The notes beneath the pieces were generated by a model. That model searched no databases. It worked only from the letters and a program-made list of their open reading frames with translations, and was not told where the DNA came from. A DNA stretch of 29,613 bases from contig JBPCXK010000123.1 in NCBI GenBank assembly GCA_051008635.1, forward strand, positions 1 through 29,613, read 5' to 3'. Both the position numbers and the translations under genes were made by a program. Source of the DNA: Gammaproteobacteria bacterium. GTDB taxonomy: Bacteria > Pseudomonadota > Gammaproteobacteria > JBPCXK01. Each line of letters starts with the position of its first letter. Within the stretch, counting starts at the first letter, position 1. This document shows, one piece after another, positions 614 to 28,384 of this stretch.

Positions 614-1411
614 TCACGGGGCGGGATATGCGGGATAGATCTCTCGAGACTTCAGAAACTCCCGGCAGCGATCGCATTTGGGATTATTTGCCTCGAGAAA
701 TGTATACACACTCATGTGCAGTGCAGGCAGTGGAAAGCGGCGGATGCTGACAGAGCCGAAGAAATGCCTGACCACGGAAACGATTTCATTGGCAGTGTTG
801 ACATGTTCATGGCGCATCAGGCTTTTGTAATCGAGACCGGTTCGTAGCCGATAAGCAATTCCAGTGGACATGCGCCAGGAAAGGCCCCAAAGCAGCCCGC
901 CCTCGCTCGGAATACCCGCCCTGAACGCACCGTGGGGGGCAAGCAGTAAGCCAGAGCGAGCAACGACCTCGGGCAGATCCAAGACATGCTCCAACACGGC
1001 TACAGACAAGATCGTCTGGTAGCGTGCGTCCTCGGGAATCTCTGCGATGTCTGAGTAGAAGTGTCTGATTTCCTGGCGATGAGACGAATCGGCGAACAAT
1101 TCCACGAAAGGCTCAACACAGTCGTATGTCTCTGCATTTTTTTCATACGCAACGTGATTCAGCGACCCGGCGCCGATTTCCAGAATGCGCCCCGTGTTGT
1201 TGGATGCAGCAACCTTGTGGTGCATCCAGGACTCCAAAAACTGCACGGCGCGTTGAAGCGTCCCTGCACCGGTACGATTTAGTTTGTACTCCTGCGTATA
1301 TATGTCCCTGTGCGCTTCCGTCATCGGCGGGCGAACACGTGGATAACTAGCCAAGAGCTCGTCGACCCTGTCCATGGCAGTTTGTCCAACCTTCGCACTT
1401 TCTTGTTTCAC
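614..1411 (-). CDS. Class I SAM-dependent methyltransferase (type A, copy 1)
   Basis: Motif I ILEIGAG, then VAVLEH, GIPSEGGLLWG and HEHVN. Paralog of 19633..20418. Confidence 0.85.
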   Translation of the reverse strand: MKQESAKVGQTAMDRVDELLASYPRVRPPMTEAHRDIYTQEYKLNRTGAGTLQRAVQFLESWMHHKVAASNNTGRILEIGAGSLNHVAYEKNAETYDCVEPFVELFADSSHRQEIRHFYSDIAEIPEDARYQTILSVAVLEHVLDLPEVVARSGLLLAPHGAFRAGIPSEGGLLWGLSWRMSTGIAYRLRTGLDYKSLMRHEHVNTANEIVSVVRHFFGSVSIRRFPLPALHMSVYTFLEANNPKCDRCREFLKSREIYPAYPAP

Positions 1412-1559
1412 AAAATCGCTTCGGTGATATTGTTAGCGGTGGCGGTCACGATGTGCAAGCGCTCGACGCAACGAGACGTTGTCTGATCTGCGCACAACCG
1501 GCGGGTCGCGCCAACTTTGCTATACAATGGCGCCTGCTATGCGGTTCAGCAACTCGTAA

Positions 1560-3257
1560 ATGCCTGTACTCCGATATTTGTTTGGAGTCGTACCCACTCG
1601 GGGCGCGCGGGAAACCGTGATAGTTTCAATTCTCGTCGTTGCGACCGCTGTCTTCGTGTCGTGGGAGCATATCAAACCTCTGAGCCTCCCGTTCCCTCCC
1701 GATCTGCATGCACGTTTGTCTTTTGAGATTGCCGTGAATCGGGTGTACTGTGGGATGACAAGTCACCTGATCACCCTGGCTTCAACGGAAGTAGCGGCCG
1801 GCGACCTCCAGCATATCCCGGCCGGTTCATTTCGCGACCTCGTACTGAGCAAGTCGCTGAGAGAATTCATATCAGAAAATACAGCTATCATCGATACACC
1901 GATTCGTCTTCTGGTCGAGCAGAACGCGGGCTCGCGCGAAATTTATTGCGCAGGGCAAGCGACTTCGTTTCTCAACAACGAGAATTCACTGATGTATCTG
2001 CATTCAGGGTTGCTGTCAGCAATTGGCGGCATCACGCCCTACCAGATCGGGCTTACTTTCAGATTCATCAGATTTGCCGCATTGATATTGTTTGCCGTCC
2101 TGTTGATCAGGGTGGGCTTCAGCCCGATCGTGTCGCTGCTGGCGCTCGTTGTGGCAACTTATACCGCGCATGTGGTTAGCACCACACACTACTACAGCAT
2201 CTATCCGTTTCTCGTTCCTGCCGTACTCTTCTTCATATCACTCTGCGGCCTGGCCCTTTCCGCTGAAACGCACCGGAGATGGCTGCCAACGATTGTTCTG
2301 GTCTTGCTGCTGGGATTTGCAGCCGCGGGAATCGTCAACGTGCGAACAAGCTATACAGTTGTCATTCTCTTTTTGTTCGGTTTGTTCCTGATGTTTGTCG
2401 TGGTGGAGTTGCTTCGAACCAGGAAAGAGAGTAGAGGCAGGACGTACCTGCTGGGTATCGCCGCAGCCGTTATGTTTGCGGTTGGTTATTCGGCGTTTAC
2501 AACGACGCTTATCAAACCGCTGACCAAGCTGAACACCCAGATGAACTATGCTCACCATCCGATTGCACACCCTCTGGTTCTGGGGCTCGCATGGCCTGAG
2601 AACGAGTTGTCCCGAGCGGAAGGCATCGAATGGAACGATGGTTTGGGCCTTGAGCTTGCGAGGCGCATCGATAACGACGTCACGTATCTCGGACCAACTT
2701 ATGAACAGGCGCTTTTTACGTATTACGCAAAGCTGTGGTTCTTTTACCCGGAGAGAATGCGGGCAGTATACGAGGCGAAGCTTCGCATGGCGGGGAGAAA
2801 CGGTGTCGACTATCTGTTAGGAAAGCTGAGGCAAAAAAACGACATGGCAAGCAAGCTGCAACGCCTGTTGCTCTGGCCGATAACCCTTTTCCCGGATGGA
2901 TTCGCTCTTTTCTTGGCTTACCTTGCCATTTGTGCGGCAACCTTGTTGCTGTGGTGTTTTCACAGAGCCCGTAGCGATATCGCGTATGTTTTGCTGGCCC
3001 TCGCGGGAGCAGCGACGTTGCTCCATCTGGAAGCAGCGATAATCATACCGGTCTTTAATCCTTCTCATCAAAGTTACCTGATGTTCTGGTTCTATATGGT
3101 CGGTATCCTGGTCTTTCAGCTTGCCGGCGCATCGACTGTTTATTTATCGGGCTTCATCGGAAAATTCCGCGCGAACGACCACAGCCCAGGTGACCGACAA
3201 GTGGTTGGGGGACATGATGATCGCAGGAAGCCTGAGCTCTTACGGGCAAAGACATAA
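1560..3257 (+). CDS. Polytopic membrane protein, putative GT-C-fold glycosyltransferase
   Basis: 565 aa. One N-terminal hydrophobic helix, a soluble loop, a run of hydrophobic helices, then a large loop (HHPIAHPLVLGL...GIEWND...TYLGPTYEQ) and further helices. Lies directly upstream of a polyprenyl-phosphate GT2. The CDS is secure; the GT-C call is inference. Confidence 0.6.
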   Translation: MPVLRYLFGVVPTRGARETVIVSILVVATAVFVSWEHIKPLSLPFPPDLHARLSFEIAVNRVYCGMTSHLITLASTEVAAGDLQHIPAGSFRDLVLSKSLREFISENTAIIDTPIRLLVEQNAGSREIYCAGQATSFLNNENSLMYLHSGLLSAIGGITPYQIGLTFRFIRFAALILFAVLLIRVGFSPIVSLLALVVATYTAHVVSTTHYYSIYPFLVPAVLFFISLCGLALSAETHRRWLPTIVLVLLLGFAAAGIVNVRTSYTVVILFLFGLFLMFVVVELLRTRKESRGRTYLLGIAAAVMFAVGYSAFTTTLIKPLTKLNTQMNYAHHPIAHPLVLGLAWPENELSRAEGIEWNDGLGLELARRIDNDVTYLGPTYEQALFTYYAKLWFFYPERMRAVYEAKLRMAGRNGVDYLLGKLRQKNDMASKLQRLLLWPITLFPDGFALFLAYLAICAATLLLWCFHRARSDIAYVLLALAGAATLLHLEAAIIIPVFNPSHQSYLMFWFYMVGILVFQLAGASTVYLSGFIGKFRANDHSPGDRQVVGGHDDRRKPELLRAKT

Positions 3258-3266: not shown

Positions 3267-4277
3267 GTGGACGACGACCGCGAAAGCGCGATCACGGATC
3301 CTGCTCTAGTCAGTATTACGATACCCGTTTTCAACGAAAACGCGGTTCTCCCGAAGCTGCTGGAGCGCCTCGCGGCTATCGCCAGGAGTCTGAAGTACAA
3401 ATACCGCTTTGAGTTCATCTTTGTGGATGACGGCAGCGACGACAATAGTCTCGACGTGCTGAGAGGTCTCGCGAGCCAGGACTCGCGCGTGCGCATACTG
3501 GAACTACGCCGCAACTATGGACAGACCGCAGCGCTACAAGCCGCCTTCGACACGGCGCGCGGCGCAATTATCATTTCAATGGATGCGGATCTGCAGCATT
3601 TTCCGGAAGACATCCCTTTGTTCCTGGAGAAAATAGAGGCAGGGAGCGACGTCGTGTGCGGATGGCGCCACCAAAGGCGCGAGGGAGTGATTCGCCGCTG
3701 GCCGTCGAAGATCGCCAATATTCTGATTCGCCGTGTTTCCGGCGTCAGCGTGCACGACATTGGCACGACTTTCCGCGCCTATCGGGCAGAAATCATTCGC
3801 GAACTGTTCCTGCTTGGCGAAAACCACCGATTCGTTCCCGTGTTCGCAAAGATGGCAGGCGCCAGAATCGACGAAGTGACGATCGAAAACATCCCCCGAC
3901 CGGCTGGGGAGTCGAGCTACGGGCTGTCGCGAACGGTCAATGTCTTCCTGGACTTGTTTTTCCTGTATTTCTATACCCATCACCTCGATCGGCCTCTACG
4001 CCTTTTCGGCAAAATAGCCTTGCTCTTGTTTCTGTTCGGCGGCGTGATCGCAAGTTGGTTATTGATACTTGCTCTCGTATACAACATTCCATCTGTGCGA
4101 GAGCATAGCGGCTGGTTCGTATTGTCCATGGTCATGTTTTTGACCGGTGTGCAATTGATATTGATCGGGATCGTTGCCGAAGTATTGGCAAGACTGTACT
4201 TTCAGCCAGGGAAAAGAACGCGCTATCGTGTGCGTCGGGAATGGGGCAACGTGGCGTCTTCCGGAGTCGAGTCCTGA
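3267..4277 (+). CDS. GT2 polyprenyl-phosphate glycosyltransferase (ArnC/GtrB/DPM1-like)
   Basis: IPVFNE, FVDDGSDD, RNYGQTAA, MDADLQH, VCGWR and two C-terminal TM helices. GTG start. Confidence 0.9.
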   Translation: MDDDRESAITDPALVSITIPVFNENAVLPKLLERLAAIARSLKYKYRFEFIFVDDGSDDNSLDVLRGLASQDSRVRILELRRNYGQTAALQAAFDTARGAIIISMDADLQHFPEDIPLFLEKIEAGSDVVCGWRHQRREGVIRRWPSKIANILIRRVSGVSVHDIGTTFRAYRAEIIRELFLLGENHRFVPVFAKMAGARIDEVTIENIPRPAGESSYGLSRTVNVFLDLFFLYFYTHHLDRPLRLFGKIALLLFLFGGVIASWLLILALVYNIPSVREHSGWFVLSMVMFLTGVQLILIGIVAEVLARLYFQPGKRTRYRVRREWGNVASSGVES

Positions 4278-4278: not shown

Positions 4279-6243
4279 ATGTGCGGAATATTCGGGGTGT
4301 ACAGTTGGCGCAACGGAATTCACAACACCCATACGCTGTGCGCGCTGACAAACACCCTTCAACACAGAGGTCCGGACGACGGGGCTTACTGGACTGACAA
4401 CAGCTTTTTCTTCGGTCATCGCCGTCTGGCGATCATCGATCTGGTGCACGGGATACAACCGATGGCGACCCACGATGGGTTGGTCGTAGTCACCTTTAAC
4501 GGAGAAATATATAACTACATTGAGCTCCGCGCGCTGCTGGAACAGCGTGGTTATGTCTTCAGCACCAACTCAGACACAGAAGTGCTGCTTCACGGCTTTG
4601 TCGAATGGGGTACGCGCTTACCGGAACGATTAACAGGCATGTTCGCTTTCGCGATCGCAGACAGACGAGACAGGTCTCTGTTCCTTGCGCGTGACCCGTT
4701 TGGCGAAAAACCGCTGTTCCTGTTTGAGACTGCTGAAGGAGTGACATTTTCATCCGAGGTTCGGGCATTGGCGGCACTGCCGACATTGAGCGCCGCCGTT
4801 GATGGTGACGCGCTCGCTCGATACCTTTGCCTCAATTACGCGCCTGGCGAGCACACCCTTCTCGCCGGCGTGCGGCGCCTGAAGCCAGGTAACTGGCGAC
4901 TGTACGACAGCGCCGGAAAGACACGGGAGGAAACATATTGGTCGCCGCACGGCGCAGCCACAAGCGGGCTCGACGGGGCGACCGTAGAAGCGGCTGCGGA
5001 AAAACTGGGGCAGCGAATCGACAACGCGGTCGCGATCGCGCTGCGTAGTGACGTTCCCGTAGGTCTGTTCCTTTCGGGCGGAATGGATTCAGCGCTGGTA
5101 GCGGAAAGCGCGGTTCGACAGGGCGTTCTGGACCGTGCCTTCTGTCTCGACTTTGCCGAGTCGACGTTCAGCGAGTGGCACAAAGCCAGGCTCGTGGCAA
5201 TAAAGCTGGGCTTGCCGCTGACACGTGTCGTTCTCTCCTGTGATGTCATGGAGGATTTCCTGAGTATCGTTGCGCACGCGGATGACCCGCTGGCGGACTC
5301 ATCAGCGCTGGCCGTGTGGACGCTGGCAAGAGAGGCAGCCCGGCATCAAAAGGTGGTGATCAGCGGCGACGGAGGGGATGAGCTTTTTGCCGGCTACCTG
5401 ACATACAAAGCCACGCTGGCCCATAAGTATTTCGCGCGGTTGTTACCCGGCTGGGCACGACGAGGACTTGCCGGCCTGGGAGGGCTGATGCCAACAACCG
5501 AGAGGAAGGTGTCCGCCTCGTACAAGTTGATGCGGTATCTGCGGGCGGCTGACCTGCCGCCCGCACAAGCCCACTTCGCCTGGAACGGAGCATGGATGCC
5601 GGAAGAGGCGGCATCGTTGCTATTGGACGAGAACGCTCAGGAGACAGCCGCAGGATTTCTTGCGCATATCGCGAACCAACATAATTTGCCAAACGAGCCG
5701 GCTTTGACTGATTTACAACGCGCCGATGCCGAGGAATATCTGCCTAACGATATTCTGACCAAAGTCGACAGAATGAGCATGGCCCACGGGCTCGAGGTCC
5801 GCGCACCGCTATTGAACCCCGACGTGGCGAGGTTTGCGTTTGGCCTGCCCGACCGACTGAAGCTAAGCCCCGCGAGCAAGCCAAAGATGCTCCTGCGCGC
5901 GCTGGCGGAAAAAAAATACGGCCCCCAGATCAGCACGGCGGCGAAACAAGGGTTCAGCATTCCGATACACGCATGGCTTCGGGGCCCGGCTCGCTATCTG
6001 GTGGACGACTTGTTATCGACGACATCGGTGGAGAAGACCGGCATGCTGCGCAGCGAGGTAGTCGAGAGTGTAAAAAACCAACATATGTCCGGGCGGCGAT
6101 CTCTGGGCTACGAGCTTTGGGGACTCATGGTGTTTGTGGCATGGCACCGCGCGCGAGTTGAAACCAAACCGACTGCCTGTCCGGCAGATCTAAAGCAACT
6201 GTCGTTCGGCGCTGAAACTCGCCAACGGTACTTGAGCACGTAA
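4279..6243 (+). CDS. asnB: Asparagine synthase (glutamine-hydrolysing)-family amidotransferase, copy 1
   Basis: Start placed at ATG 4279 (MCGIFG, class II GATase N-terminal Cys). Also HRGPD, HRRLAIID, NGEIYNY, LSGGMDS, SGDGGDELFAGY and KVDRMSMAHGLEVRAP. Confidence 0.95.
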   Translation: MCGIFGVYSWRNGIHNTHTLCALTNTLQHRGPDDGAYWTDNSFFFGHRRLAIIDLVHGIQPMATHDGLVVVTFNGEIYNYIELRALLEQRGYVFSTNSDTEVLLHGFVEWGTRLPERLTGMFAFAIADRRDRSLFLARDPFGEKPLFLFETAEGVTFSSEVRALAALPTLSAAVDGDALARYLCLNYAPGEHTLLAGVRRLKPGNWRLYDSAGKTREETYWSPHGAATSGLDGATVEAAAEKLGQRIDNAVAIALRSDVPVGLFLSGGMDSALVAESAVRQGVLDRAFCLDFAESTFSEWHKARLVAIKLGLPLTRVVLSCDVMEDFLSIVAHADDPLADSSALAVWTLAREAARHQKVVISGDGGDELFAGYLTYKATLAHKYFARLLPGWARRGLAGLGGLMPTTERKVSASYKLMRYLRAADLPPAQAHFAWNGAWMPEEAASLLLDENAQETAAGFLAHIANQHNLPNEPALTDLQRADAEEYLPNDILTKVDRMSMAHGLEVRAPLLNPDVARFAFGLPDRLKLSPASKPKMLLRALAEKKYGPQISTAAKQGFSIPIHAWLRGPARYLVDDLLSTTSVEKTGMLRSEVVESVKNQHMSGRRSLGYELWGLMVFVAWHRARVETKPTACPADLKQLSFGAETRQRYLST

Positions 6244-6256: not shown

Positions 6257-6616
6257 ATGAAACCAGTTCAGATTTTTCTGTGCGTGGCCTGCATTTTGCT
6301 GATTACCGTTGGTCAGAGCCTGTTGAAGAAGGCCGTTGGGCATCATCACGACCTGGCCACTGTCCACGATATGCACGCACTGCTAACAAACGTCTGGTTA
6401 TGGCTGGGGTTCGGCGTCTATGGAATCTGCTTTGTTCTTTATCTGATTTTGCTGCGGGGCCTGCCGCTCGCATACGTCTACCCCGTCTTCGCCCTTACAT
6501 TCATCACCGTCCCCGTGACTGGTCTTGTCGTCTTCGGGGAAAAAATGACGCCGTATGGGTTTGCCGGCGGCGCATTTATCGTGCTCGGCATCTATTTGAT
6601 ATCGCGGCAATACTGA
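6257..6616 (+). CDS. SMR/DMT-family small membrane protein (ArnE/ArnF-like putative lipid-linked sugar flippase)
   Basis: 119 aa with four hydrophobic helices; GQSLLK, LPLAYVYP and GLVVFGEK motifs. Confidence 0.75.
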   Translation: MKPVQIFLCVACILLITVGQSLLKKAVGHHHDLATVHDMHALLTNVWLWLGFGVYGICFVLYLILLRGLPLAYVYPVFALTFITVPVTGLVVFGEKMTPYGFAGGAFIVLGIYLISRQY

Positions 6617-6638: not shown

Positions 6639-6825
6639 TAACCCCGCCGTCCGTCGCACCCCAGGCCCCGCCTGGATCAAGAAAGCCAGCCACTCGGCTT
6701 GCTGAGGGTCGTTTTTGCCATATAGTATCGGCACAGTTTTCGACCAACCCTGGAGCACGAGCCGCCACACCTCTCAGCCCGGAATGGGGCAGCGCGCGAC
6801 GCACGAAGTCCCTCGAGCAATCTGT

Positions 6826-7659
6826 ATGCAACAAAGCCAATCTATTCATCCGGACAAGCTGGAGATTCAGAAGCAGTGGGACACCGATCCGTGCGGCGCC
6901 TATACGGTCGACGACGTCCCGACCGAAACGCTGGAGTACTATCGGGCCATACGTAAACACCGTTATGACGAATACGCGCCATGGATGGGTGAGGCGATGG
7001 CGTTCTCGCGCTGGCAGGACAAAGACGTTCTGGAGATCGGTACGGGTGTGGGCAGCGACCATTTCCGCCTCGCCAGCCAAGGCAACCGCATGACCGCGCT
7101 CGATCTCAGTCGTGAGCATCTGCGCCACACATCGCGCCACCTCGAACTCGAAGGGCTGAGAACCGCGGCAATCTACGGTGATGCCGAGGGTATGCAGCTG
7201 GAAGACGAAAGCTTCGACCTCGTGTACTCCTTTGGCGTATTGCACCACACTCCTGACATTGCCAGAGCACTGTCGGAGGTCAAACGGGTGCTGCGGCCGC
7301 AGGGTACGGCGATCATTGGCCTATACCATCGCAATTCTGCTTTTTTCTGGCTCCGAACCATTGCAGAAAGAGGCATTGTCCGCGGCAGGCTGTTTACCCA
7401 AGGCTATCGTCGGTTGATGTCGGAGATCGAGGTGCGCACCGATCCCGACTCCGCGATACCCATCGTCAATGTCTATTCCAGACGCGAAGTTCGTCGCCTG
7501 TTCCGTAATTTCGCCTCGGTAAGTATCTCGGCACATCATATCGAGTGGCCACACCTCGGGATCCCACGAGGGCTATACCATGTGGTGGGGCGCGGGACGC
7601 TCGAGCGATTTGCAAGGGGCTTGGGGTGGTACCTGATTGTGCACGCTCATAAGGAATAG
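6826..7659 (+). CDS. Class I SAM-dependent methyltransferase (type B, copy 1)
   Basis: VLEIGTGVG, DAEGM, SFDLVYSFGVLHHTPD and RVLRPQG. Start at ATG 6826 is a judgement; the ORF is open from 6715. Confidence 0.9.
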   Translation: MQQSQSIHPDKLEIQKQWDTDPCGAYTVDDVPTETLEYYRAIRKHRYDEYAPWMGEAMAFSRWQDKDVLEIGTGVGSDHFRLASQGNRMTALDLSREHLRHTSRHLELEGLRTAAIYGDAEGMQLEDESFDLVYSFGVLHHTPDIARALSEVKRVLRPQGTAIIGLYHRNSAFFWLRTIAERGIVRGRLFTQGYRRLMSEIEVRTDPDSAIPIVNVYSRREVRRLFRNFASVSISAHHIEWPHLGIPRGLYHVVGRGTLERFARGLGWYLIVHAHKE

Positions 7660-7895: not shown

Positions 7896-9176
7896 ATGCG
7901 AACTTATTTCTGGCAGAACCCTAAAGCCCGCGCACAAGAGTTGCTGGCCCTGGACTTCGGTCGACAAGTCGCAGAGACCTTTGCGGTGCGCGTGCTGCTG
8001 ACAATCGTCTCCCTGATCACAACCGTATTGATCGCGCGGCTTTTGGGGCCGGACGGCAGAGGCCTGTATGCTGTTCTGATGACGATTGCGACCGTAGGCG
8101 TGCAGCTTGGCAACCTGGGCTTCCACTCATCCAACACGTACTACGTGGCCCAAAACAGGTCGCTCATGCCTACGCTGGCGAGTAATTCTCTTTTGCTGAG
8201 CGCATTCGCAGGCGGCGGCTGCGGCCTGTTGGCGTGGACACTGTTTGCGGCATGGCCGGAGGTCGCGCCGGCGCGCGGGAGCGTGTTGCTGCCTGCATTG
8301 ATCTGGATGCCAATCGGCCTTGCGTACCTGCTCCTGCAGAATCTTCTGCTCGGCATCCAGGATGTCCGCGCCTTCAACCTGATCGAGTTGGCGACCAGGC
8401 TGCTTGGGGTCGGGCTTATCGCAATTATCGTGTTGCTCGACCTGATATCCGTGCAGCAGTTGTTTGGCGCCGCCCTCATCGCGGTCGCACTCGGTGTGGT
8501 CTTCCTGATCTGGAGAATCTCACACCATATGTCTGGCTGGCTACCGCCATCAGTCGGGCTGATTCAGGAAAATATCCGTTATGGGCTCAAGGCATACCTC
8601 TCGGCGCTGTGTTCGTTCCTGGTGCTGCGCGTGGATGTCTTTATGGTGCAGCACATGCTGGGGAACGAGCAGACCGGCTACTATTCGATCGCGGTCGCCA
8701 TGGCGGATATGGTCCTGATGCTGCCTTTAGTGATCGGCATGCTTTTGTTTCCGAAACTTACGGCCATGCAGAATGCTGAGCACAAATGGTCGGCCACAGG
8801 TCGCGTGCTGAAGCTCACCGGCATGAGCATGGCCGTGCTGGGCGTCATAGCCGCACTTGTCGCAGAACCTCTGGTTCGGATGCTGTTTGGCGGCGAATTC
8901 AGCCCCGCGGTGCCGGCATTTATGTGGCTCATTCCCGGAGTCGTGTTGCTCTCTATAAACATGATTCTGATGAACTACTTTGCTGCCATAGGCATGCCCG
9001 CCATCACGGTGTACTCGCCACTCCTGGCGACGGTGGTAAACGTCGGCCTCAACATCGAGCTGATACCGCACTGGGGCATCTCAGGGGCAGCTATGGCTTC
9101 GACGCTTGCGTATGGGTTGATGCTGTTTGCGAGCATCATCTACTTGAAGAAAGAAAAACAAAAGCGCCAAGCATGA
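7896..9176 (+). CDS. wzx: Wzx-type oligosaccharide flippase (MOP superfamily)
   Basis: 426 aa, hydrophobic throughout; ARLLGPDGRG, LRVDVFM, GYYSIAV and LIPHWGISGAAMAS motifs. Confidence 0.9.
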   Translation: MRTYFWQNPKARAQELLALDFGRQVAETFAVRVLLTIVSLITTVLIARLLGPDGRGLYAVLMTIATVGVQLGNLGFHSSNTYYVAQNRSLMPTLASNSLLLSAFAGGGCGLLAWTLFAAWPEVAPARGSVLLPALIWMPIGLAYLLLQNLLLGIQDVRAFNLIELATRLLGVGLIAIIVLLDLISVQQLFGAALIAVALGVVFLIWRISHHMSGWLPPSVGLIQENIRYGLKAYLSALCSFLVLRVDVFMVQHMLGNEQTGYYSIAVAMADMVLMLPLVIGMLLFPKLTAMQNAEHKWSATGRVLKLTGMSMAVLGVIAALVAEPLVRMLFGGEFSPAVPAFMWLIPGVVLLSINMILMNYFAAIGMPAITVYSPLLATVVNVGLNIELIPHWGISGAAMASTLAYGLMLFASIIYLKKEKQKRQA

Positions 9177-11831: not shown

Positions 11832-11844
11832 GGAGAGTCAAGAA

Positions 11845-13661: not shown

Positions 13662-13691
13662 GGCGTGTCGCAAAAGTCCACGACGGCACCC

Positions 13692-13724
13692 GTAGGTTGG
13701 CGCTGAGCGAAAGCGAAGCCCAAC
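13692..13724 (+). repeat. GTAG-type REP
   Basis: GTAG-GTTGGCGCTGAGCGAAAGCGAAGCCCAAC, nearly identical to the copies at 18550 and 26438. Confidence 0.8.
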
Positions 13725-18580: not shown

Positions 18581-18766
18581 AAACCACGAGTTTTGCGACA
18601 CGCTGCAGCCGCTCCCGTGATCTGAGGCTGGACGGATGAGCTTGTTCTTTTTTTCGGCTAAACATGCAACCATGGATCTCGGGCAGCAACGCATGCGATG
18701 TATCCAAAGCAGCCTGCAGTAACCCAGCCGGCATACGCTTATGCTGATCAACGGAAGTATCGACAT

Positions 18767-19632: not shown

Positions 19633-20418
19633 TCACGGCCGCCTGTACATGAACGAGATAATCGCGTTGATGTCGATAATAGGCAGACGAAACGGATGAA
19701 ACCAGACGCCCACGGGTTCCAAATGCGCTGTCAGGAAGTTCAATACGTCTGAAGCGTAGTTCACATGTTCCCAACAAATGACCTTATCGTAGTCTATTCC
19801 GAGGCGGCCGTAAGCCATTCGTCGAGTAGTCAGGAATCGCCCGACACCCCAGGCGAGGCCGCCCTCGGCTGGGATCCCTCCAATTAAGGCGCCTCCCCGC
19901 TTAAGCAGATCGAACGTCGGCGACAACGCCTCCTCGAGTGGATGTATATGCTCGAACGCATAGAAGGAAACCATAACATCGAAAGCTTCCCGGCTGCTCA
20001 TGAGCTGTTCATGCGCCGGCGTGCCGACGACGACACTGTCGCAATCGACGCCCATACCACTTAGCTGTCGAGCAGCAGTCTCAGTGAACTGTTGCTCGAC
20101 ATCGACGACAGTGTAGCTTGCCGGCTTCCCTTTCCAATGGCGCATGTGTTCGATCTGACCGGGACCAATCTCGATGACGTGCTTCCCTGTCAAATCAAGC
20201 CTCGACATCACCGAATAACCCCACTCATTGGACAACGCGCCGACGGACTGCTTTTGCGTTTCGTAGTAGACGTCAACGAACGCCCGCTTCCACGCCTCCC
20301 AGTCCTTGTCGCCCGGGATCGGGATTTTGCCGTAGCGTGCTCTGTCGCCAAACAAGGGAACAGAGAGCACATTGGGCAGTCGATGGCCAAATGACTTGTA
20401 CCTGAGCATGACGGTCAA
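19633..20418 (-). CDS. Class I SAM-dependent methyltransferase (type A, copy 2)
   Basis: VIEIGPG, YAFEH, GIPAEGGLAWG and WEHVN. TTG start overlaps the upstream stop; alternative ATG at 20409. Confidence 0.85.
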   Translation of the reverse strand: MTVMLRYKSFGHRLPNVLSVPLFGDRARYGKIPIPGDKDWEAWKRAFVDVYYETQKQSVGALSNEWGYSVMSRLDLTGKHVIEIGPGQIEHMRHWKGKPASYTVVDVEQQFTETAARQLSGMGVDCDSVVVGTPAHEQLMSSREAFDVMVSFYAFEHIHPLEEALSPTFDLLKRGGALIGGIPAEGGLAWGVGRFLTTRRMAYGRLGIDYDKVICWEHVNYASDVLNFLTAHLEPVGVWFHPFRLPIIDINAIISFMYRRP

Positions 20419-23108
20419 TGCTTTCGGTTAACAACCGAAAACGATCGAACTCTGAACCAGAGCCCGGTCTGCGAGAGGCTGCCCTCATCTACGACTTCAA
20501 GAGTTGCTCGTATACACATGTCTTCTTGCGCCGGTTCCGCAGCGACAGTACTCACGAAGCGAACAGGAAGGACTATGCTTGGATCTATACCCGGCCTGCG
20601 CTCACATCCTCCTACCGGCGTCAACCACGCGATGTGATAGGGTGGAAGCTTACGATCCAACGCACTTTGCGAGACACCTGGATCACCGAGGCCGTAGCTC
20701 GGGGGGTACATGCCAGCCCGAAGCAGGAGAAACGCCTGCAAAGTGTCACCGATCGAGACTTTCATTTCACGGCCGTCGGCGAAGTGAAGCTCACCACCCC
20801 GCCCGACTACGACAGGAATCGTCGGCGTTTGTGAGACAGGCTGCCCTGCAGACTGATGATAAGTTCCTTCGAGCACTCGCTGTATATGGTGCCGACCGTA
20901 ACTGACATGAGCCCCATAGCTGGCCGCCGCCAGCAGGACCAACCCCAGCGCAGCACGTGAGGGTGAGATTGCGGGCCGAAAAGCGATCATCGGAGCATTG
21001 GCGGGACTTGTTGAGGCAACAGCCTTCAGCCCGGACAACGCGACCAGTAGATGGATCAGCAGCACTGGATAGCACAGTCGCGGCTCGCCAAAGCCCGCAA
21101 AAACAATGATGACTACATTACTCACAATCAATGCCACGAGAAAGTAGATTTCTCGGGATCGGACGGCGAGGATCAACCCCAAGGCTGACGCGAGAAGAAC
21201 GGGCCAGTACAGACTAGCGCCATGAAGATAAGTGTACAACTCAGATGGATTTCTGAGGTTTGGGGGCTTGGGTCCATCCGTCGCCCATATACCAGCAGGG
21301 GCCAGACCGTAGAACGCCAGAAATCGCCATTTGACGGCTTCGATAAACCAAGTTGGATCTGAAGACAGTCGCTGGAGAAAATATTCTCGTTGCTTTCTGT
21401 CGCGCTCCGCTGCGTCTGGATACCTGCGAAGCCATTCGCTGGATATCTCCCGGAAGTTGTCGCCATACCGAAGGCCATAGAATCCGATTCGCGGATCGTT
21501 GAGAACAGCCAAACCCTCGCCGGCCTGTGTAGTTCCGGGTGAGAGTCGACCTTCCACGACATGGTTCCTCAACGTCCAGGGCATGATGCCGATCACAAGC
21601 AGAATCGCCCCAAATACCAGGCCGTGTCTCAATCGATCACGCCACCGCGCGCAGCGCGGAACCAACACCGCCAGGCCGAGTGCCGCACAGTAGAAAGCGG
21701 CCTGTAGCCGGAAATTGAGCACCAACGCGGCCACCAGGCCGAGCCAGATAACGTGGCGATAGTCAGGCTGCCGCAAATAGGCGATCGCAGCGAACAGCGA
21801 AGCGGCAAACACGGGGATATACCAGTTTTCTATTTGGGTGTACGAAACGGCATAGTGGAACTGGAAGTAGAACGCGACCACGACACCTGCCAAAGCACTG
21901 AGCAATCGCGATCCGGTCGCAAGCATCACGGCAAGGATCATTACGGTTGGCGTCGCGATCGCCATCAGCACGTTGATGATTTGCTGGGCTCTCCAGTCAT
22001 GGCCGAATATCCAGTAGAAGAAAGCCATGCCGTACTGGTAGGCGGGCATGTAATAGCTACTGCCCTGAGGCGACGAAGAGTTCGCGATCGCGTGGGCGAT
22101 CTCATCGTAAGTGTTCGAATCGTACCAACCTGACTGATTCCAATGCTCGACGACACCCGGGAGGACATTGATCAGTGTCAAAGCGACGGCAAACACGATG
22201 AGCACACGCACACCGATTCGCATCTCCGCCCACCGCAGTAACTGCTGGGTGCCGGAGTTTTTACCGGTATTGTGCAGATACGCAAAAACAAGTCCCGCCA
22301 GCATCCCGAGGATCAGCGGCGCAGAACTATCCCAGAACCCTACTATCGGCAGACCACAGAGGAATACAATCAACAGACCGGCCAGGTTGCGAATCGCTCC
22401 CGTCCATCGCCATTTCGCGAAGAGCCCGACATGTACACTTCCGACAAACGCCAGGATGAAAGCAGCAGGATCATTTATGAACTCCTTCACACTACTCAAC
22501 GAAGAAACCGCATGATCCTTCGACAGGAGAAGGGGTAACAACACGAGCACGGACAAAACGACGGCCCAAACGAACGCGCCGTGCCTCGACTGGTTGATTG
22601 TCCATGACTCGGCGCTCAAGTAACGGCGTAGCCCGCCCATCCTGTACACGCCGTAGACACCGGCAAGAATGCTGAGCACTATAGCCCCCAGCACGAGGGC
22701 GGCATTCAGTCTAAACTTCAATTGCGCACTATAGGTGTGAGCGTTGTCGATCGGGTTAGAGCCATCCCGAGAGGAGAAGTACAGCCAGTTTCGATAGTGA
22801 GAAAACCGCCCACGCCCATGATCGATAATTTCCTGATGGAGTGTGTGTGGCGGCCAAAGCGGATAACCGTTCTCGTAGACAACAGCGGACGACCGTCTGG
22901 GATGCTCATTCGTATCCGCATAGAGGGTGAGCAGTCGGTTACTGGCGGCGACCTCGTACATGACCATGTGCCCGCCAGCGGAATGAAGTGCCGACTGGTC
23001 TATGTGGAGATGGCGAACGATGCGGAGTTGCCCCGCGGCGGCCAGGATCAGCGCACAAACAATAGCAGCGCGAACTAACCAGATATATCTCGGGTTGGAA
23101 TGCATCAT
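20415..23108 (-). CDS. Large ArnT/PMT-like GT-C glycosyltransferase with extra N- and C-terminal extracytoplasmic domains
   Basis: Start placed at ATG 23108, just before the first TM helix. WYDSNTYDEIA...PAYQYGMAFFYWIFG, TQIENW, FRLQ and PWTLRNH...G motifs are typical of GT-C/ArnT-like proteins. Confidence 0.75.
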   Translation of the reverse strand: MMHSNPRYIWLVRAAIVCALILAAAGQLRIVRHLHIDQSALHSAGGHMVMYEVAASNRLLTLYADTNEHPRRSSAVVYENGYPLWPPHTLHQEIIDHGRGRFSHYRNWLYFSSRDGSNPIDNAHTYSAQLKFRLNAALVLGAIVLSILAGVYGVYRMGGLRRYLSAESWTINQSRHGAFVWAVVLSVLVLLPLLLSKDHAVSSLSSVKEFINDPAAFILAFVGSVHVGLFAKWRWTGAIRNLAGLLIVFLCGLPIVGFWDSSAPLILGMLAGLVFAYLHNTGKNSGTQQLLRWAEMRIGVRVLIVFAVALTLINVLPGVVEHWNQSGWYDSNTYDEIAHAIANSSSPQGSSYYMPAYQYGMAFFYWIFGHDWRAQQIINVLMAIATPTVMILAVMLATGSRLLSALAGVVVAFYFQFHYAVSYTQIENWYIPVFAASLFAAIAYLRQPDYRHVIWLGLVAALVLNFRLQAAFYCAALGLAVLVPRCARWRDRLRHGLVFGAILLVIGIMPWTLRNHVVEGRLSPGTTQAGEGLAVLNDPRIGFYGLRYGDNFREISSEWLRRYPDAAERDRKQREYFLQRLSSDPTWFIEAVKWRFLAFYGLAPAGIWATDGPKPPNLRNPSELYTYLHGASLYWPVLLASALGLILAVRSREIYFLVALIVSNVVIIVFAGFGEPRLCYPVLLIHLLVALSGLKAVASTSPANAPMIAFRPAISPSRAALGLVLLAAASYGAHVSYGRHHIQRVLEGTYHQSAGQPVSQTPTIPVVVGRGGELHFADGREMKVSIGDTLQAFLLLRAGMYPPSYGLGDPGVSQSALDRKLPPYHIAWLTPVGGCERRPGIDPSIVLPVRFVSTVAAEPAQEDMCIRATLEVVDEGSLSQTGLWFRVRSFSVVNRKH

Positions 23109-23310: not shown

Positions 23311-24249
23311 GTGCCCACCGCCGTCGTTGTCATACCCACGAAGAACGAAGAGCAAACCATATCGGATGTGATATCCGATGTACGTGGTGCGTTTGACACC
23401 CTGCACTACGACCGCGTCGAGATCGTAGTGACCGATGACTCCACCGACCGGACCCGAGGCATCGCAAAAGAACTCGGAGCCCGTGTCGTCAACGGTGGCG
23501 GCGAAGGCCTGGGCACCGCAATGTATCGCGGTTTGAAGGCGTCACTGAAACTCAATCCCGATGTGATAGTGAGTATTGACGGCGACGGTCAAACTAACGC
23601 CAGGGCGGAAATAGCGAGTTTTCTTGCGCCGATAGAGCAAGGCGATGCTGATTTGGTGTTGGGCTCGCGGTTTCAAAAGCAAGCGCTCGTCGAATACCGG
23701 TATCGGCCGGTGAATCGTTTTGGGACCGCAGTGCTTACCTGGATCCTACGAAGAATGACCAGCCTGAAGCTCACGGACAGTCATGGCGGCATTCGCGCGA
23801 TGGCGCCCGAGGTTGTCAGAGAGCTCCAGATTCTGGGGACGCACACTTACGTTCAGGAAACCATTGTGGATGCTTCAGAAAAAGGGTTTCGCATCGTCGA
23901 GCTTCCCAGTGTCTGGAAAAAACGCGAGTTTGGGAAATCACGTGTCGTTGGAAGCATTCCCAGATACATCGCCTATACACTTCCGGTTCTGCTGCTGCGG
24001 TCGGGCCAGCATATCCGCGCACTGTACACCTGCGGTGGGGCGCTGGTGCTCGGCGCTTTCCTGGTGTTCGTAACCGTTCTCGTCCAGGAGGGCTTAACGC
24101 TCGCGCTCGGTCATCGGACACCCGCGTTTATCCTGATCGCGCTGATGATCATGGCCGGGCTTCAGATGGTTTTCTTTGGTTTCAGCTTCCAGTTGCTCAA
24201 ACAGATGAAGCGATCGCTTGATCGTATCGAGCACAATGAACATCCGTGA
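23311..24249 (+). CDS. GT2 polyprenyl-phosphate glycosyltransferase (DPM1-like)
   Basis: VIPTKNEE, TDDSTD, IDGDGQ, GSRF and two C-terminal TM helices. Confidence 0.88.
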   Translation: MPTAVVVIPTKNEEQTISDVISDVRGAFDTLHYDRVEIVVTDDSTDRTRGIAKELGARVVNGGGEGLGTAMYRGLKASLKLNPDVIVSIDGDGQTNARAEIASFLAPIEQGDADLVLGSRFQKQALVEYRYRPVNRFGTAVLTWILRRMTSLKLTDSHGGIRAMAPEVVRELQILGTHTYVQETIVDASEKGFRIVELPSVWKKREFGKSRVVGSIPRYIAYTLPVLLLRSGQHIRALYTCGGALVLGAFLVFVTVLVQEGLTLALGHRTPAFILIALMIMAGLQMVFFGFSFQLLKQMKRSLDRIEHNEHP

Positions 24250-24282: not shown

Positions 24283-25326
24283 ATGAATAATCCGGAGCCT
24301 TTGCGCACGGCGGTAGTGGGGATGGGTAAACTTGGCCTGCTCCACGCCGCAACTCTTAATGTTCTGCCTGCGTGCAGGCTTGTTGCAGTTGCAGATCCAT
24401 CAGATCAGGTGGTCAAGGCCTTCAGGTCAAAAAAGAAAGACGTGGCGACCTTCAGAGATCACCAGTCGCTTTTGGGGGAAGTGGGGCCCGACGTCGTCGC
24501 GGTCACCACACCTACCGGCCTTCATTGCCAAGTCGCGTCGGACTGCATCGATGCCAACGCGCACGTGTTCATCGAAAAGCCGCTCTGTCTGGTTCCGGAA
24601 GATGCAGAACCACTGTTGTCATCTCTGAGACAGAACCCGCGAGTCGCCATGGTCGGGTACATGACTCGCTTCCTGCCTACCTTCGAAAAAGCAAAAGAGA
24701 TCGTGGACCGGGGCATTCTCGGCAAACTACAGATGCTGAGATCGAGCATGTACGTGGAACAACTGTTCAGAAAGGGCAAAGGCTGGCGCTACGACCCGGC
24801 TGTCTCGGGAGGGGGTGTTCTCATGACGCAAAATTGCCATTTGATTGACATGTTGCTCTGGATGTTCGGCAAAGTCAGGCAGGTCAACGCGAATGTCTCT
24901 CAACTTTATTCGAGCGAAGTCGAAGATCACGCTCACGTCTTTTTCGACTTCGAAAGTGGGTTGAAAGGATTCTTCGACGCGTCCTGGTCGACGAGGCACT
25001 ACCGCACTCCGACGATGCGCATTCACGTTCAGGGTGAACGGGGAACGCTGGATGTTGACGACGACCAGGTATCGATGTTTCTGACTGAGGATTTTGAAGA
25101 AATGACACAGGGATGGCGCCGATGGAGAAAACCCGACCTTTACGACGGCGTGGCCTTCGACATCGGTGGTGAGAACTACACGAAACAGGCGATGGAGTTC
25201 ATCGCTGCAATCCGGGGAGAAGGTAATATCGGATCAGATATCGACTCGGCGTTGCGGGTACAAAGAGTCATTACAGCCGCTTACGAATCCGCGAAAGCCG
25301 GCGGCGCCCCGGTAACGCCGGAATGA
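24283..25326 (+). CDS. Gfo/Idh/MocA-family NAD(P)-dependent oxidoreductase
   Basis: VVGMGKLG, HVFIEKP, VGYMTRF and GGGVLMTQNCHLID. Confidence 0.93.
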   Translation: MNNPEPLRTAVVGMGKLGLLHAATLNVLPACRLVAVADPSDQVVKAFRSKKKDVATFRDHQSLLGEVGPDVVAVTTPTGLHCQVASDCIDANAHVFIEKPLCLVPEDAEPLLSSLRQNPRVAMVGYMTRFLPTFEKAKEIVDRGILGKLQMLRSSMYVEQLFRKGKGWRYDPAVSGGGVLMTQNCHLIDMLLWMFGKVRQVNANVSQLYSSEVEDHAHVFFDFESGLKGFFDASWSTRHYRTPTMRIHVQGERGTLDVDDDQVSMFLTEDFEEMTQGWRRWRKPDLYDGVAFDIGGENYTKQAMEFIAAIRGEGNIGSDIDSALRVQRVITAAYESAKAGGAPVTPE

Positions 25327-26255
25327 CCATGAGAAACGAAGCACTGGTCCCGGTCATCCTCGGACACAACGCTTTTTTCGGCGTCGATCATCTGTCTGCC
25401 GAACGTGGCTCTGAACGGGCAGCGCACTTTGCCGATAGCACGAAGATACTCGACGTCATCCACCTGGCTCGGACACACGGGGTCGGCGGGATGATGATGT
25501 CGACTCATGAGCGGGCTTACGACATTGCCGATGCGATCAGAGCAGACAAGACCCTGAGGGAGGGCCTGAGAATCTACCCGCTTTTACCCTACGCTCAGAA
25601 ATACGTAACCAGAGCCAACGAGGTCGGCATGGTGAATGTGGTGCTGGAGATGCTGTCCGGAACATCGTTGTCCGGCAAGTTGAATTTACTCTGGGCCGGC
25701 TCCAAAGCAACATTGGGCAAGGATCTCAACGCTGCTTTGTCGGCGCTCATGCGAATCGAGCTCAAGGCGTTCAAAAATCTGGATGTGGGCGCGGTTTTTC
25801 TGCATGACCTGTTTACGGATCTTGCTTTGGCCTTCGAGCTTCCGGAAATCTTCGAGTTCTATTGCAAGGAGGTTCCAAAAATCTGCGGGGGAGTCGGAGC
25901 CTTCGCAAGCAAGAACCTGCCGACCTTTCTCCACAAGTTCGCCGAATGGGGGCTGGAATCGCCGCTGGTGATGGCGCATTTCAACAAAACGGGGTTCCAG
26001 ATGAACCCCGGCCGGGCTGAATGCGAACAGGCAGCTTCCGAGCACGAGGCCTCGATTCTTGCGATGGGGCCGTTGGCTGCCGGGTATCTAAAGCCGAAAG
26101 ATGCATTCAGCTACCTCGCAACGGTAAAAAATATCGAAGGCGTGGTAGTGGGCATGTCCCGCCCGAGGCACATAGAAGAAACCATGGTGGCGATCCGTGA
26201 GCATTTGTTTTCGCAAGCTCCTGCCCCGCGTGTCGTGCAGGCAGAAAGCACTTAA
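25323..26255 (+). CDS. Uncharacterised protein, probable aldo/keto-reductase-like TIM barrel
   Basis: ATGA-coupled to the oxidoreductase. ILGHNAFFG, FNKTG, LAMGPLAAG and VVVGMS...HIEET echo AKR motifs; no clear DTA..Y catalytic motif. Confidence 0.55.
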   Translation: MTMRNEALVPVILGHNAFFGVDHLSAERGSERAAHFADSTKILDVIHLARTHGVGGMMMSTHERAYDIADAIRADKTLREGLRIYPLLPYAQKYVTRANEVGMVNVVLEMLSGTSLSGKLNLLWAGSKATLGKDLNAALSALMRIELKAFKNLDVGAVFLHDLFTDLALAFELPEIFEFYCKEVPKICGGVGAFASKNLPTFLHKFAEWGLESPLVMAHFNKTGFQMNPGRAECEQAASEHEASILAMGPLAAGYLKPKDAFSYLATVKNIEGVVVGMSRPRHIEETMVAIREHLFSQAPAPRVVQAEST

Positions 26256-26375: not shown

Positions 26376-26437
26376 GCGTTTTCGCGATTTCCGATGGTTT
26401 TGGAGGTAAGTGCAGCGGGTTCTGCAAGCAATGGTCC

Positions 26438-26469: not shown

Positions 26470-26533
26470 GTTTTACAACACTCGCTGAAGCTGCTCCCAC
26501 AAGCGGGCAAAGACTCACTCAGAGCCCTGCTTA

Positions 26534-28384
26534 ATGTGTGGCATAGCCGGCTACATCGGGCGAACCAGGCCCGGATTGCTCGACGAGATGATCGACGCAA
26601 TCAGCAATCGGGGGCCAGACGGAAAGGGACGGTTCACGAATGGGCCTGTCCATCTCGGCCATACGCGCCTTGCGATAATTGATCTCGACTCTGGTGCACA
26701 ACCAATGAGTCTCGACGACGAACTCGTCATCTCCTTCAACGGAGAGATTTACAACTTCATCGAGCTGCGCGCTGAAATAGAAAAGGCCGGCTTGTCGTTC
26801 AGCACCAAATCCGACACCGAAGTAATACTCCAGGGCTACAAGGCGTTTGGGGAGCACTTTTTCGAGCGCCTGTTAGGGATGTTTGCGTTTGCATTAGCCG
26901 ACTTCGGGCGAAAACGAATCTGCCTGGTGCGCGATCACTTCGGCATCAAGCCGCTGTTCTACGCGCACACCAAAGACGGATTGATCTTCTCATCCTCGGC
27001 CACCGCAGTAGCATTACATCCGGATGTTGACCGATCGCTGTCGACTGATGCGGTCCGGGATTACTTGCAGTTTCGCTACGTTCCGACGGGCGAGCATTTC
27101 TTCGCAGGCGTGAAGACGTTGCCGCCCGCCACGACGCTGACCTGCAACCTTGATGGCGGGACCTCACTATCCGCGTACTGGCTGCCAAAAACTCGAGCGG
27201 CCTCAGCGAAATCGAGCATCGATGACTGGATTGAGCGAGCTACGGAACTCATCGACGATGCGGTCAGACTTCAACTGCGGGCCGACGTTCCGGTAGCAAT
27301 GTTCCTGTCAGGCGGTGTTGATTCCTCGGCCATTGCCACCTTCGCGGCGCGCCACGCCAAACAACAGATGACGGCGTACACGTACTCGATGCAAGGTACT
27401 CACGACGAGGTCGACGACGCCAAAGTAATTGTGGACAGCTCGCACGCCCGGCACCATGTTGTTCGTCACCGGGGCGAGCACGGCCTGGATGGACTATACA
27501 AAGCGATCGCCTGTATGGATTTGCCGGTAGGGGATGCGATTATCGTCCCAACCTATCGGCTCTGCGAATCAGCCGCCCAACACCACAAGGTCGTGCTTAC
27601 CGGGGAAGGAGCCGATGAGATCTTTGGCGGCTATGTGCACTTCGGCGCGTTGACAAAACTTGCAAGACTGGGCAGCACCCTGCCGTTCTTGAACAAGTTA
27701 GCTGGCGTTATTGACATGATTCCCGTTTGGGTACTGAATCGATTCTTCAGCTATCAGGCATCGTTGGGCCGGCAGGGTCGCACGAAACTGAAACGAATGG
27801 TGCGGGCTCTCGATGAACCGAGCACTGTCCATCGATTGGCTGGCTCTGTCATAGACGATATCGATATCAGTCGGGCCAGCCACCTGGGGCCCCCTTCCCG
27901 GGCCGCCGATGCAGAGATCAGTCTCGATCTCGCCTCCCTCATTCAAGATGCCCTCGTTACCTGGCTCCCCTATCAAATTCTTAACAAAATGGATCAGCTT
28001 TCGATGGCTCACGGCCTGGAAGCACGGGTCCCCTTTCTTGACCCAAGAATCCACGATGCACTGTTGCATGTTCCCGAAGACTTCCTCATTACGAACAGGG
28101 AAAACAAAATCCTGCTACGTCGCGTGGTTGAACAGGCTGGTGGCCCAAACTTCAACAAACCAAAGTTTGCTTTTCATGTTCCTGTGGAAAAGGATTATCG
28201 GGATGTGCTGAGGCGCATATGCGACGAGTGGTTGTCACGCAGTCAATGCCGACAGCACGGTATACTCCAGAGCGGTTTTGTGGAGGAGAACCTGAGGGCC
28301 CTGCAACACGGGGAGTTCCTGGCTTCCAAGCGGCTTGTCACCATGGTCGGGCTTCATATGTGGCTCGAGGCGAACAAGGCATGA
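26534..28384 (+). CDS. asnB: Asparagine synthase (glutamine-hydrolysing)-family amidotransferase, copy 2
   Basis: MCGIAG, RGPDG, HTRLAIID, NGEIYNF, LSGGVDSS, TGEGADEIFGGY and SMAHGLEARVPFLD. Confidence 0.95.
   Translation: MCGIAGYIGRTRPGLLDEMIDAISNRGPDGKGRFTNGPVHLGHTRLAIIDLDSGAQPMSLDDELVISFNGEIYNFIELRAEIEKAGLSFSTKSDTEVILQGYKAFGEHFFERLLGMFAFALADFGRKRICLVRDHFGIKPLFYAHTKDGLIFSSSATAVALHPDVDRSLSTDAVRDYLQFRYVPTGEHFFAGVKTLPPATTLTCNLDGGTSLSAYWLPKTRAASAKSSIDDWIERATELIDDAVRLQLRADVPVAMFLSGGVDSSAIATFAARHAKQQMTAYTYSMQGTHDEVDDAKVIVDSSHARHHVVRHRGEHGLDGLYKAIACMDLPVGDAIIVPTYRLCESAAQHHKVVLTGEGADEIFGGYVHFGALTKLARLGSTLPFLNKLAGVIDMIPVWVLNRFFSYQASLGRQGRTKLKRMVRALDEPSTVHRLAGSVIDDIDISRASHLGPPSRAADAEISLDLASLIQDALVTWLPYQILNKMDQLSMAHGLEARVPFLDPRIHDALLHVPEDFLITNRENKILLRRVVEQAGGPNFNKPKFAFHVPVEKDYRDVLRRICDEWLSRSQCRQHGILQSGFVEENLRALQHGEFLASKRLVTMVGLHMWLEANKA

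Follow-up and report, generated by a model that had tools for sequence, protein, structure and literature searches.

Three-component systems are the main known route for the extracytoplasmic decoration of bacterial surface glycans, and they bring about serotype conversion and resistance to phages and to antimicrobial peptides. In the Gtr-type and pentofuranose systems (GtrA/GtrB/GtrC), which are encoded in or near polysaccharide loci, a polyprenyl-phosphate sugar synthase, a flippase and a GT-C glycosyltransferase add glucose, galactose or pentofuranoses. In the Arn pathway (ArnC, ArnD, ArnE/ArnF and ArnT), which adds aminoarabinose to lipid A, a GT2 enzyme loads a modified sugar onto undecaprenyl phosphate (Und-P), a small SMR/EamA-like flippase moves the product and a GT-C enzyme makes the transfer outside; ArnD edits the lipid-linked donor on the cytoplasmic face, a precedent for donor editing. 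The Agl N-glycosylation pathway of Haloferax volcanii combines a dolichol-phosphate-dependent GT2 (AglJ), a uridine diphosphate (UDP)-glucose dehydrogenase (AglM) and an S-adenosylmethionine (SAM) methyltransferase, AglP, that works on the lipid-linked hexuronic acid. The AsnB-like amidotransferases WbpS, WbtH and WbqG of O-antigen loci are linked to residues of N-acetylgalactosaminuronic acid amide, and to our knowledge no report describes their genes as regularly paired with a polyprenyl-phosphate GT2 and a GT-C enzyme. In pentofuranose three-component O-antigen systems, extra enzymes, the lipid-linked epimerases, edit the polyprenyl-phosphate-linked donor (Kelly et al. 2024, PMC11127046). 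In this study we have analysed the window, that is, the whole 29.6-kb contig JBPCXK010000123.1 of a 4.83-Mb metagenome-assembled genome (MAG), 80% complete, from an uncultured gammaproteobacterium without near relatives among sequenced genomes; the window carries two sets of glycan-tailoring genes, each with a GT2, a GT-C enzyme, an AsnB homologue and methyltransferases. The plan of these sets is a known one; what is new is the fixed pairing with AsnB and several methyltransferases, the extra enzymes of the second set and two unrecognised GT-C families. None of the Gtr-type or pentofuranose systems has been described with AsnB and several methyltransferases, and our literature searches found no description of a three-component cassette of this composition.

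We consider it probable that the window encodes two distinct periplasmic glycosylation systems of the three-component Gtr/Arn kind, each in its own cassette and each with an amidated and methylated hexuronic acid as donor. In such a cassette, the polyprenyl-phosphate GT2 would take a hexuronic acid, which probably bears a 2-acetamido group, from a nucleotide sugar and load it onto Und-P at the inner side of the membrane, the glutamine-dependent AsnB-family enzyme would turn the C6 carboxylate into a primary amide, and two or three SAM methyltransferases would put on methyl groups. The finished lipid-linked sugar would then be flipped, in set 1 by an ArnE/ArnF-like candidate and in the homologous set-2 cassettes by an LPG_synthase_TM protein, and the GT-C enzyme, of a new sequence family, would pass it to an envelope acceptor, which here may most likely be the Wzx-dependent polysaccharide encoded between the sets. 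Set 2 may edit the sugar further through a Gfo/Idh/MocA oxidoreductase, a protein of 310 amino acids (aa) and a lyase-like protein. If this is true, the cassettes extend the three-component route to charge-neutralised (amidated), methylated uronic acids and place in a functional context the many paralogues that are annotated as "asparagine synthase" within polysaccharide loci.

Gene calls were taken from a listing of open reading frames (ORFs) and from Pfam and NCBIfam scans of the window proteins (Table 1). A preliminary description of the same DNA had recognised two sets of the same five gene types (methyltransferases MT-A and MT-B, a GT-C membrane protein, a GT2 and AsnB), and all ten genes are indeed found where it had placed them. 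Both GT2s, as it held, are of the polyprenyl-phosphate type, matching Glycos_transf_2 and carrying predicted C-terminal transmembrane (TM) segments, two or three in each. GT2a, with two such segments, matches the NCBIfam models for ArnC (199 bits) and PgfS (154 bits) over its full length, both under cut-off, while GT2b scores best against AglJ (118 bits, cut-off 325) and PpgS (80 bits) and reaches 33 bits on the ArnC model. The AsnB homologues keep an intact N-terminal MCGI nucleophile and both domains, with scores for AsnB1 and AsnB2 of 145 and 140 bits on GATase_7 and of 247 and 243 bits on Asn_synthase. On the XrtA/PEP-CTERM amidotransferase model TIGR03108, AsnB1 (452.6 bits) and AsnB2 (369.1 bits) both fall under the 816.9 cut-off. 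Since the nucleophile and both catalytic domains are kept, the two proteins are predicted to be active glutamine- and ATP-dependent carboxylate amidotransferases. Of the proposed logic of a GT2, a small flippase and a GT-C enzyme, the first and last parts are present in both sets, but a candidate flippase is seen only in set 1. This is a 119-aa protein with four predicted TM segments, which matches ArnE (40 bits) and ArnF (36 bits), both under the NCBIfam cut-off. Beyond the five types, set 1 has this protein; set 2 adds the Gfo/Idh/MocA oxidoreductase, the 310-aa protein, the lyase-like protein and a further methyltransferase. The best NCBIfam match of the oxidoreductase is UDP-N-acetylglucosamine (UDP-GlcNAc) 3-dehydrogenase (131 bits, under cut-off), and the 310-aa protein has no match in Pfam, NCBIfam or PDB sequences.

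The two membrane proteins, which we call g03 (set 1, 565 aa) and g18 (set 2, 947 aa), could be placed by structure and not by sequence. For g03, no match was obtained in Pfam, NCBIfam or PDB sequences, with nothing even at E 10; g18 gave no Pfam match except PMT_2 at E 2.1 (9 bits) and no NCBIfam match. Neither protein significantly matches the hidden Markov models of the ArnT/PMT_2 families (PF13231, PF02366), and searches of PDB sequences with the profiles of both families retrieved no GT-C chain. The AlphaFold models, in contrast, both show the GT-C fold that the preliminary description had proposed to look for by structure prediction. The AlphaFold2 model of g03, built from 22 homologues, has a predicted local distance difference test score (pLDDT) of 87 and a predicted template modelling score of 0.87. 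In an exhaustive comparison of this model with 48,161 PDB chains by VIA-align, its best matches are ArnT (Z 17.6), Pmt1/2 (16.0) and AglB (15.5), followed by ALG12, ALG3, Pmt4, PglB, STT3, AftA/B and others; all of the 19 top matches are GT-C enzymes, after which the score drops to Z 8.8 or less. Foldseek agrees for g03 but by itself gives weak matches (E 0.06 or worse, TM-score about 0.3), and its placement needed the exhaustive VIA-align search. The g18 model, built from 42 homologues, has a pLDDT of 83, and its core (residues about 348-750) matches Pmt1/2 (Z 22.8), Pmt4 (22.7), AglB (21.5) and ArnT (21.1), with GT-C enzymes at 20 of the 20 top positions and a Foldseek probability of 1.0 against Pmt4, PglB and STT3. 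GT-C enzymes carry their catalytic base in the first extracytoplasmic loop. In this loop, the aligned g03 family conserves D.H, directly behind the first TM helix (TM1), as well as the E of NNENSLM, which is invariant; in the g18 family, the residue D380 of WDxSGWMD, located in the first core loop, is invariant. For g03, both the public annotation and the Atlas record place the start at 1656 and thereby lose the first TM helix; we favour the ATG at 1560, as the alignment of homologues keeps TM1 and the D.H, which aligns with DGHA. Judged from these models, g03 and g18 are members of two GT-C sequence families, neither of which is recognised by any profile library.

In g18, the GT-C core is preceded by an N-terminal beta-sandwich and extra TM helices and followed by a C-terminal beta domain. 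The N-terminal beta-sandwich (residues 80-184, window 22707-23021) is also present, frequently more than once per protein, in many long proteins that are not otherwise related, among them P0072, P0076 and P0080; no Pfam model covers it, and in structure it weakly matches accessory domains from glycoside hydrolases (XylC, BT_1002).

With these assignments, the parts of set 1 come nearest to the Arn pathway, GT2a to ArnC, the 119-aa protein to ArnE/ArnF and g03 in structure to ArnT, with sequence scores that lie under the family cut-offs. Unlike the Arn pathway, however, the locus has no ArnA, ArnB or ArnD, its editing enzymes are AsnB and methyltransferases, and its GT-C enzymes lack an ArnT/PMT_2 sequence match. 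The Agl pathway differs in other ways: it is an archaeal protein N-glycosylation route that ends in AglB and has no AsnB, and GT2b stays well under the AglJ cut-off. To WbpS, WbtH and WbqG, compared here by description, the likeness lies in a two-domain glutamine-dependent AsnB within a surface-glycan locus.

The preliminary description would have been refuted if the five families did not occur together elsewhere; they do so in many unrelated genomes, and with conserved gene order across phyla. Beside homologues of g03, the GT2a orthologue directly adjoins the AsnB1 orthologue in loci L003, L005/L011, L010, L012, L013, L015, L016 and L017/18, which come from two Cyanobacteria, a Chromatiales MAG (L012), Acidobacteriota, Planctomycetota and metagenome contigs. 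Across the 8 lineages, identities to the window proteins are 51-64% for GT2a, with scores of 374-459 bits, and 53-63% for AsnB1, with scores of 636-843 bits; where the gene is split, the score is lower, at 245 bits for GT2a in L010 and 461 bits for AsnB1 in L015. MT-A1 orthologues (215-301 bits) are present in L005, L010, L011, L012 and L013, and other methyltransferases take their place in the remaining set-1 loci; in fact, methyltransferases adjoin every GT-C homologue of either family with visible flanks. A class I SAM methyltransferase is even fused C-terminally to several g03 homologues (P0008, P0012, P0014 and L012, 2972-5482), which implies a cytoplasmic C-terminus and a physical coupling of methylation to the transferase. 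The g03 homologue in L003 (10001-12439) also has a C-terminal extension. The flippase slot varies among the set-1 loci, being filled by the ArnE/ArnF-like protein in the window, by GtrA in L001 and by LPG_synthase_TM (PF03706) in L012 (10118-11242), the one set-1-type cassette in which this family is seen and where it is probably the flippase. The cassette of L003 forms a compact stand-alone island amid housekeeping genes on a 117-kb contig, and such stand-alone versions occur in cyanobacterial MAGs. Within the class, the g03 family was found in 3-4 of the 41 genomes sampled, and the nearest relative of the set-1 cassette in the window is cyanobacterial, not the Chromatiales one of the same class. 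This distribution fits horizontally mobile cassettes.

The set-2 cassette shows the same conservation. L025 and L027 keep the gene order of the window: GT2b (orthologues of 425-438 bits), the Gfo oxidoreductase (390-451 bits, same position), the 310-aa protein (320-390 bits, lying after the oxidoreductase and before AsnB), asnB2 (699-733 bits), the lyase-like protein (266-308 bits), methyltransferases and g18 (401-453 bits), after which comes an LPG_synthase_TM gene; a nucleotide-sugar dehydrogenase is also part of the cassette. In L027, housekeeping genes surround this compact stand-alone cassette, which lies on a contig of 6.5 Mb. Partial versions are present in L007, where the asnB2 orthologue is partial (387 bits), in L008, L009 and L026, and on one ENA contig, and L009 and L014 have MT-B2 orthologues, of 163 and 250 bits respectively, next to their GT-C homologues. 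Among 400 sampled genomes of the phylum, no member of the g18 family was found at E 1e-20 or better, and the gene context of this family was accordingly taken from metagenome contigs. The LPG_synthase_TM gene directly follows the GT-C gene in L007 (3564-4511), L025 (12718-13731), L026 (3531-4511) and L027 (12909-13844), and its product is probably the flippase in those homologous cassettes.

The chemistry of the donor is suggested by the same loci. Nucleotide-sugar 6-dehydrogenase genes lie within cassettes of both types (L005, L011, L025 and L027), and the cyanobacterial one of L011, which adjoins an epimerase of the short-chain dehydrogenase/reductase family, is TviB-like, with 438 bits on the UDP-GlcNAc 6-dehydrogenase model (cut-off 592). 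Because both cassette types can carry such a dehydrogenase, the substrate is likely to be a hexuronic or 2-acetamidohexuronic acid, and the product its C6 amide; the TviB-like enzyme fits an N-acetylhexosaminuronic acid, as in loci of the WbpS/WbtH/WbqG type. Since ATP, glutamine and SAM are cytoplasmic, amidation and methylation must come before flipping. The tight pairing of GT2 and AsnB genes, with a stop-to-start gap of 1 nt in the window, and the fusions of GT-C enzymes with methyltransferases suggest, furthermore, that both reactions act on, or right at, the membrane-bound lipid-linked donor. A more specific proposal would be that AsnB and the methyltransferases edit the Und-P-linked sugar itself, giving a lipid donor that has not been described, an Und-P-linked, O-methylated N-acetylhexosamine-derived uronamide, for two uncatalogued GT-C families spread by horizontal gene transfer across at least five phyla; we put this forward only tentatively, as a possibility that we hold somewhat less likely than its opposite.

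Several points weigh against the reading of the two sets as three-component cassettes with an amidated, methylated uronic acid donor. No set-2 flippase is found in the window, nor was PF03706 found in the 80%-complete genome. The window contains no nucleotide-sugar dehydrogenase; three candidates lie on other contigs of the genome. The methyltransferases are generic class I enzymes, and PDB sequence searches of MT-A1 and MT-B2 gave no substrate indication. AsnB homologues are also encoded beside GT4 and heparinase II/III-like genes in ordinary polysaccharide loci (L001), so that AsnB by itself does not mark a cassette of this kind. Joint transfer of the set-1 genes finds modest support, with Spearman coefficients of 0.27-0.55 on non-independent pairs in a crude pairwise-identity test of three proteins. 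Finally, the fold matches do not tell whether the acceptor is a glycan, lipid A or a protein.

This last point leads to the alternative that survives best, although we regard it as unlikely: that the cassettes modify another envelope target, either lipid A or core, as ArnT/Rgt-like enzymes do, or protein, as PMT/PglB-like enzymes do. It concerns the acceptor only and is compatible with the rest of the proposed mechanism. The best structural matches, which include ArnT, Pmt and oligosaccharyltransferases, and the stand-alone cassettes away from polysaccharide loci (L003, L027) speak for it. A polysaccharide acceptor agrees better with the embedding of the set-1 cassette in polysaccharide loci in the window, L001, L012 and L013, and with the N- and C-terminal beta domains of g18, which lie on the non-core side and of which the N-terminal one resembles accessory beta-sandwiches of glycoside hydrolases; neither point is decisive.

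A second explanation, which we find rather improbable, is that the substrates of the AsnB enzymes and methyltransferases are nucleotide sugars or the main-chain repeat unit linked to undecaprenyl diphosphate, as is assumed for WbpS, WbtH and WbqG; their genes would then neighbour those of the GT2 and GT-C enzymes only as fellow glycan genes, and no dedicated donor-tailoring module would exist. The window would agree with this, since it is a single large polysaccharide locus that encodes Wzx, three GT4 enzymes and heparinase-like proteins, and so would the AsnB genes of L001, which stand in the common AsnB-GT4-heparinase arrangement. However, both cassette types also form compact islands amid housekeeping genes, within which no genes for main-chain assembly were called (L003, L027), orthologues of GT2a and AsnB1 are immediate neighbours in about eight independent lineages, and fusions of GT-C enzymes with methyltransferases exist.

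The preliminary description had taken the two sets for one duplicated module, and this part of it does not stand. Its pairing of the methyltransferases by subfamily is borne out, together with the motifs GIPsEGGLlWG/EHVN in MT-A and GV[LI]HHTPD/RVLxPQGTA in MT-B. In an all-versus-all BLASTP comparison, however, the paired proteins are only 24-34% identical, with 24% for MT-A (E 2e-13; 24-27% across the comparisons made of this pair), 26% for the GT2s (E 1e-13), 30% for MT-B (E 2e-20) and 34% for the AsnBs (E 5e-91), while g03 and g18 have no BLASTP match to each other and a comparison of the two family profiles reaches a probability of only 24%, over 32 columns. AsnB1 scores 286 bits against AsnB2 and 248-267 bits against the AsnBs of an ordinary polysaccharide locus. 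Closer relatives are found outside the window, in other phyla, at 51-64% identity for set 1 and at 390-733 bits for set 2. Thus, a single five-gene module duplicated within the lineage, with copies that then diverged, is hardly credible: each of the five gene types is present twice, the methyltransferases pair by subfamily and MT-A adjoins the GT-C gene in both sets, but the two GT-C enzymes are not detectably homologous in sequence, the GT2s belong to different subfamilies (ArnC-like and AglJ/PpgS-like), AsnB1 is as near to unrelated polysaccharide-locus AsnBs as to AsnB2, and the orthologues in other phyla are far closer than the partners in the window. By sequence comparison, the two sets are instead distinct cassette types that have long been separate. 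Each has a GT-C family, a GT2 subfamily and an AsnB clade of its own, besides its extra genes, and the two share one plan without being copies of each other.

Table 1. Features of the window, in order of position (strand as called; empty where none is given)
Feature	Position	Strand	Evidence and remarks
Heparinase II/III-like gene, 5'-cut	1-603		left window end
MT-A1, class I SAM methyltransferase	614-1411	(-)	Methyltransf_23, 27.9 bits; divergent from the set-1 GT-C gene
g03, predicted GT-C-fold membrane glycosyltransferase, 565 aa, new sequence family	1560-3257	(+)	AlphaFold2 model and VIA-align
GT2a, ArnC-like polyprenyl-phosphate glycosyltransferase	3267-4277	(+)	Glycos_transf_2, 125 bits
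asnB1, glutamine-dependent AsnB-family amidotransferase	4279-6243	(+)	GATase_7 and Asn_synthase; N-terminal MCGI; start 1 nt past the GT2a stop
Small 4-TM EamA/SMR-like protein, 119 aa, candidate set-1 flippase	6257-6616	(+)	EamA, 25.7 bits
MT-B1, class I SAM methyltransferase	6715-7659, probable start 6826	(+)	Methyltransf_11, 78 bits
Wzx flippase	7896-9176		Pfam Polysacc_synt_3, 57 bits
Third-type methyltransferase (Methyltransf_23) in the core	8786-10006		long ORF overlaps wzx; likely ATG 9173 overlaps the wzx stop
Candidate Wzy	11800/11845-13404		534 aa, 11 predicted TM segments
Heparinase II/III-like protein	14085-15791		between the sets
MT-B2, class I SAM methyltransferase	18698-19618, probable start 18767	(+)	Methyltransf_25, 82 bits
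MT-A2, SAM methyltransferase	19633-20418	(-)	Methyltransf_12/11; start overlaps the stop of the set-2 GT-C gene
g18, predicted GT-C-fold glycosyltransferase, 947 aa	20415-23258	(-)	AlphaFold2 model and VIA-align
GT2b, AglJ/PpgS-like polyprenyl-phosphate glycosyltransferase	23311-24249	(+)	Glycos_transf_2, 66 bits
Gfo/Idh/MocA sugar oxidoreductase	24283-25326	(+)	Pfam GFO_IDH_MocA N- and C-terminal domains
310-aa protein	25323-26255	(+)	conserved set-2 operon member
asnB2, glutamine-dependent AsnB-family amidotransferase	26534-28384	(+)	GATase_7 and Asn_synthase; N-terminal MCGI
g23, lyase-like protein	28381-29613, cut by contig end	(+)	ATGA overlap with the asnB2 stop

The set-2 operon continues beyond the window. 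The lyase-like gene after asnB2, g23, is cut by the contig end, and another contig of the same genome, C281, overlaps the right end of the window (29597-29613) by 17 nt with one mismatch and an unbroken reading frame. C281 (L034, 1-1257) supplies the C-terminal part of about 170 aa of the lyase-like gene and then a Methyltransf_11 gene (L034 439-1257); because it continues the frame and adds a methyltransferase, as in L025 and L027, we conclude that the operon runs on there. The gene at 1-603 was considered as the missing C-terminus of g23, which would have made the contig circular or wrapped, and was rejected, as it has no similarity to the C-terminus of the full-length homologue. The Atlas record gives g23 a Ulvan_lyase_N/C-like lead, there is no Pfam match, and the protein is 49% identical to a 579-aa homologue downstream of AsnB in L007. 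A lyase-like protein of about 580 aa always follows the asnB2-type gene (window 28381-29613; L007 5242-6981; L025 14672-16408; L027 15482-17014), a pairing that resembles the common arrangement of AsnB, GT4 and heparinase II/III genes seen in L001 and hints at some shared role of lyase-fold proteins in making uronic-acid glycans. The two heparinase II/III-like genes of the window share 23% identity over the C-terminal domain, and counting the lyase-like gene at 28381 there are three lyase-fold proteins in this biosynthetic locus.

Between the two sets lies the region that the preliminary description had called a Wzx/Wzy core, in which the three GT4 enzymes are also encoded. Wzx is confirmed by its Polysacc_synt_3 match, whereas the proposed Wzy has no family match in the library scans and stands on its 11 predicted TM segments; it has few homologues, none with an assigned name. 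The core methyltransferase (9173-10006) does not pair with any other methyltransferase of the window and has a 73-bit relative in L001. Following the candidate Wzy, within the region 11800-13813, is an ORF of 128 aa without a family match, and one homologue of the candidate Wzy adjoins the set-1 cassette in L013.

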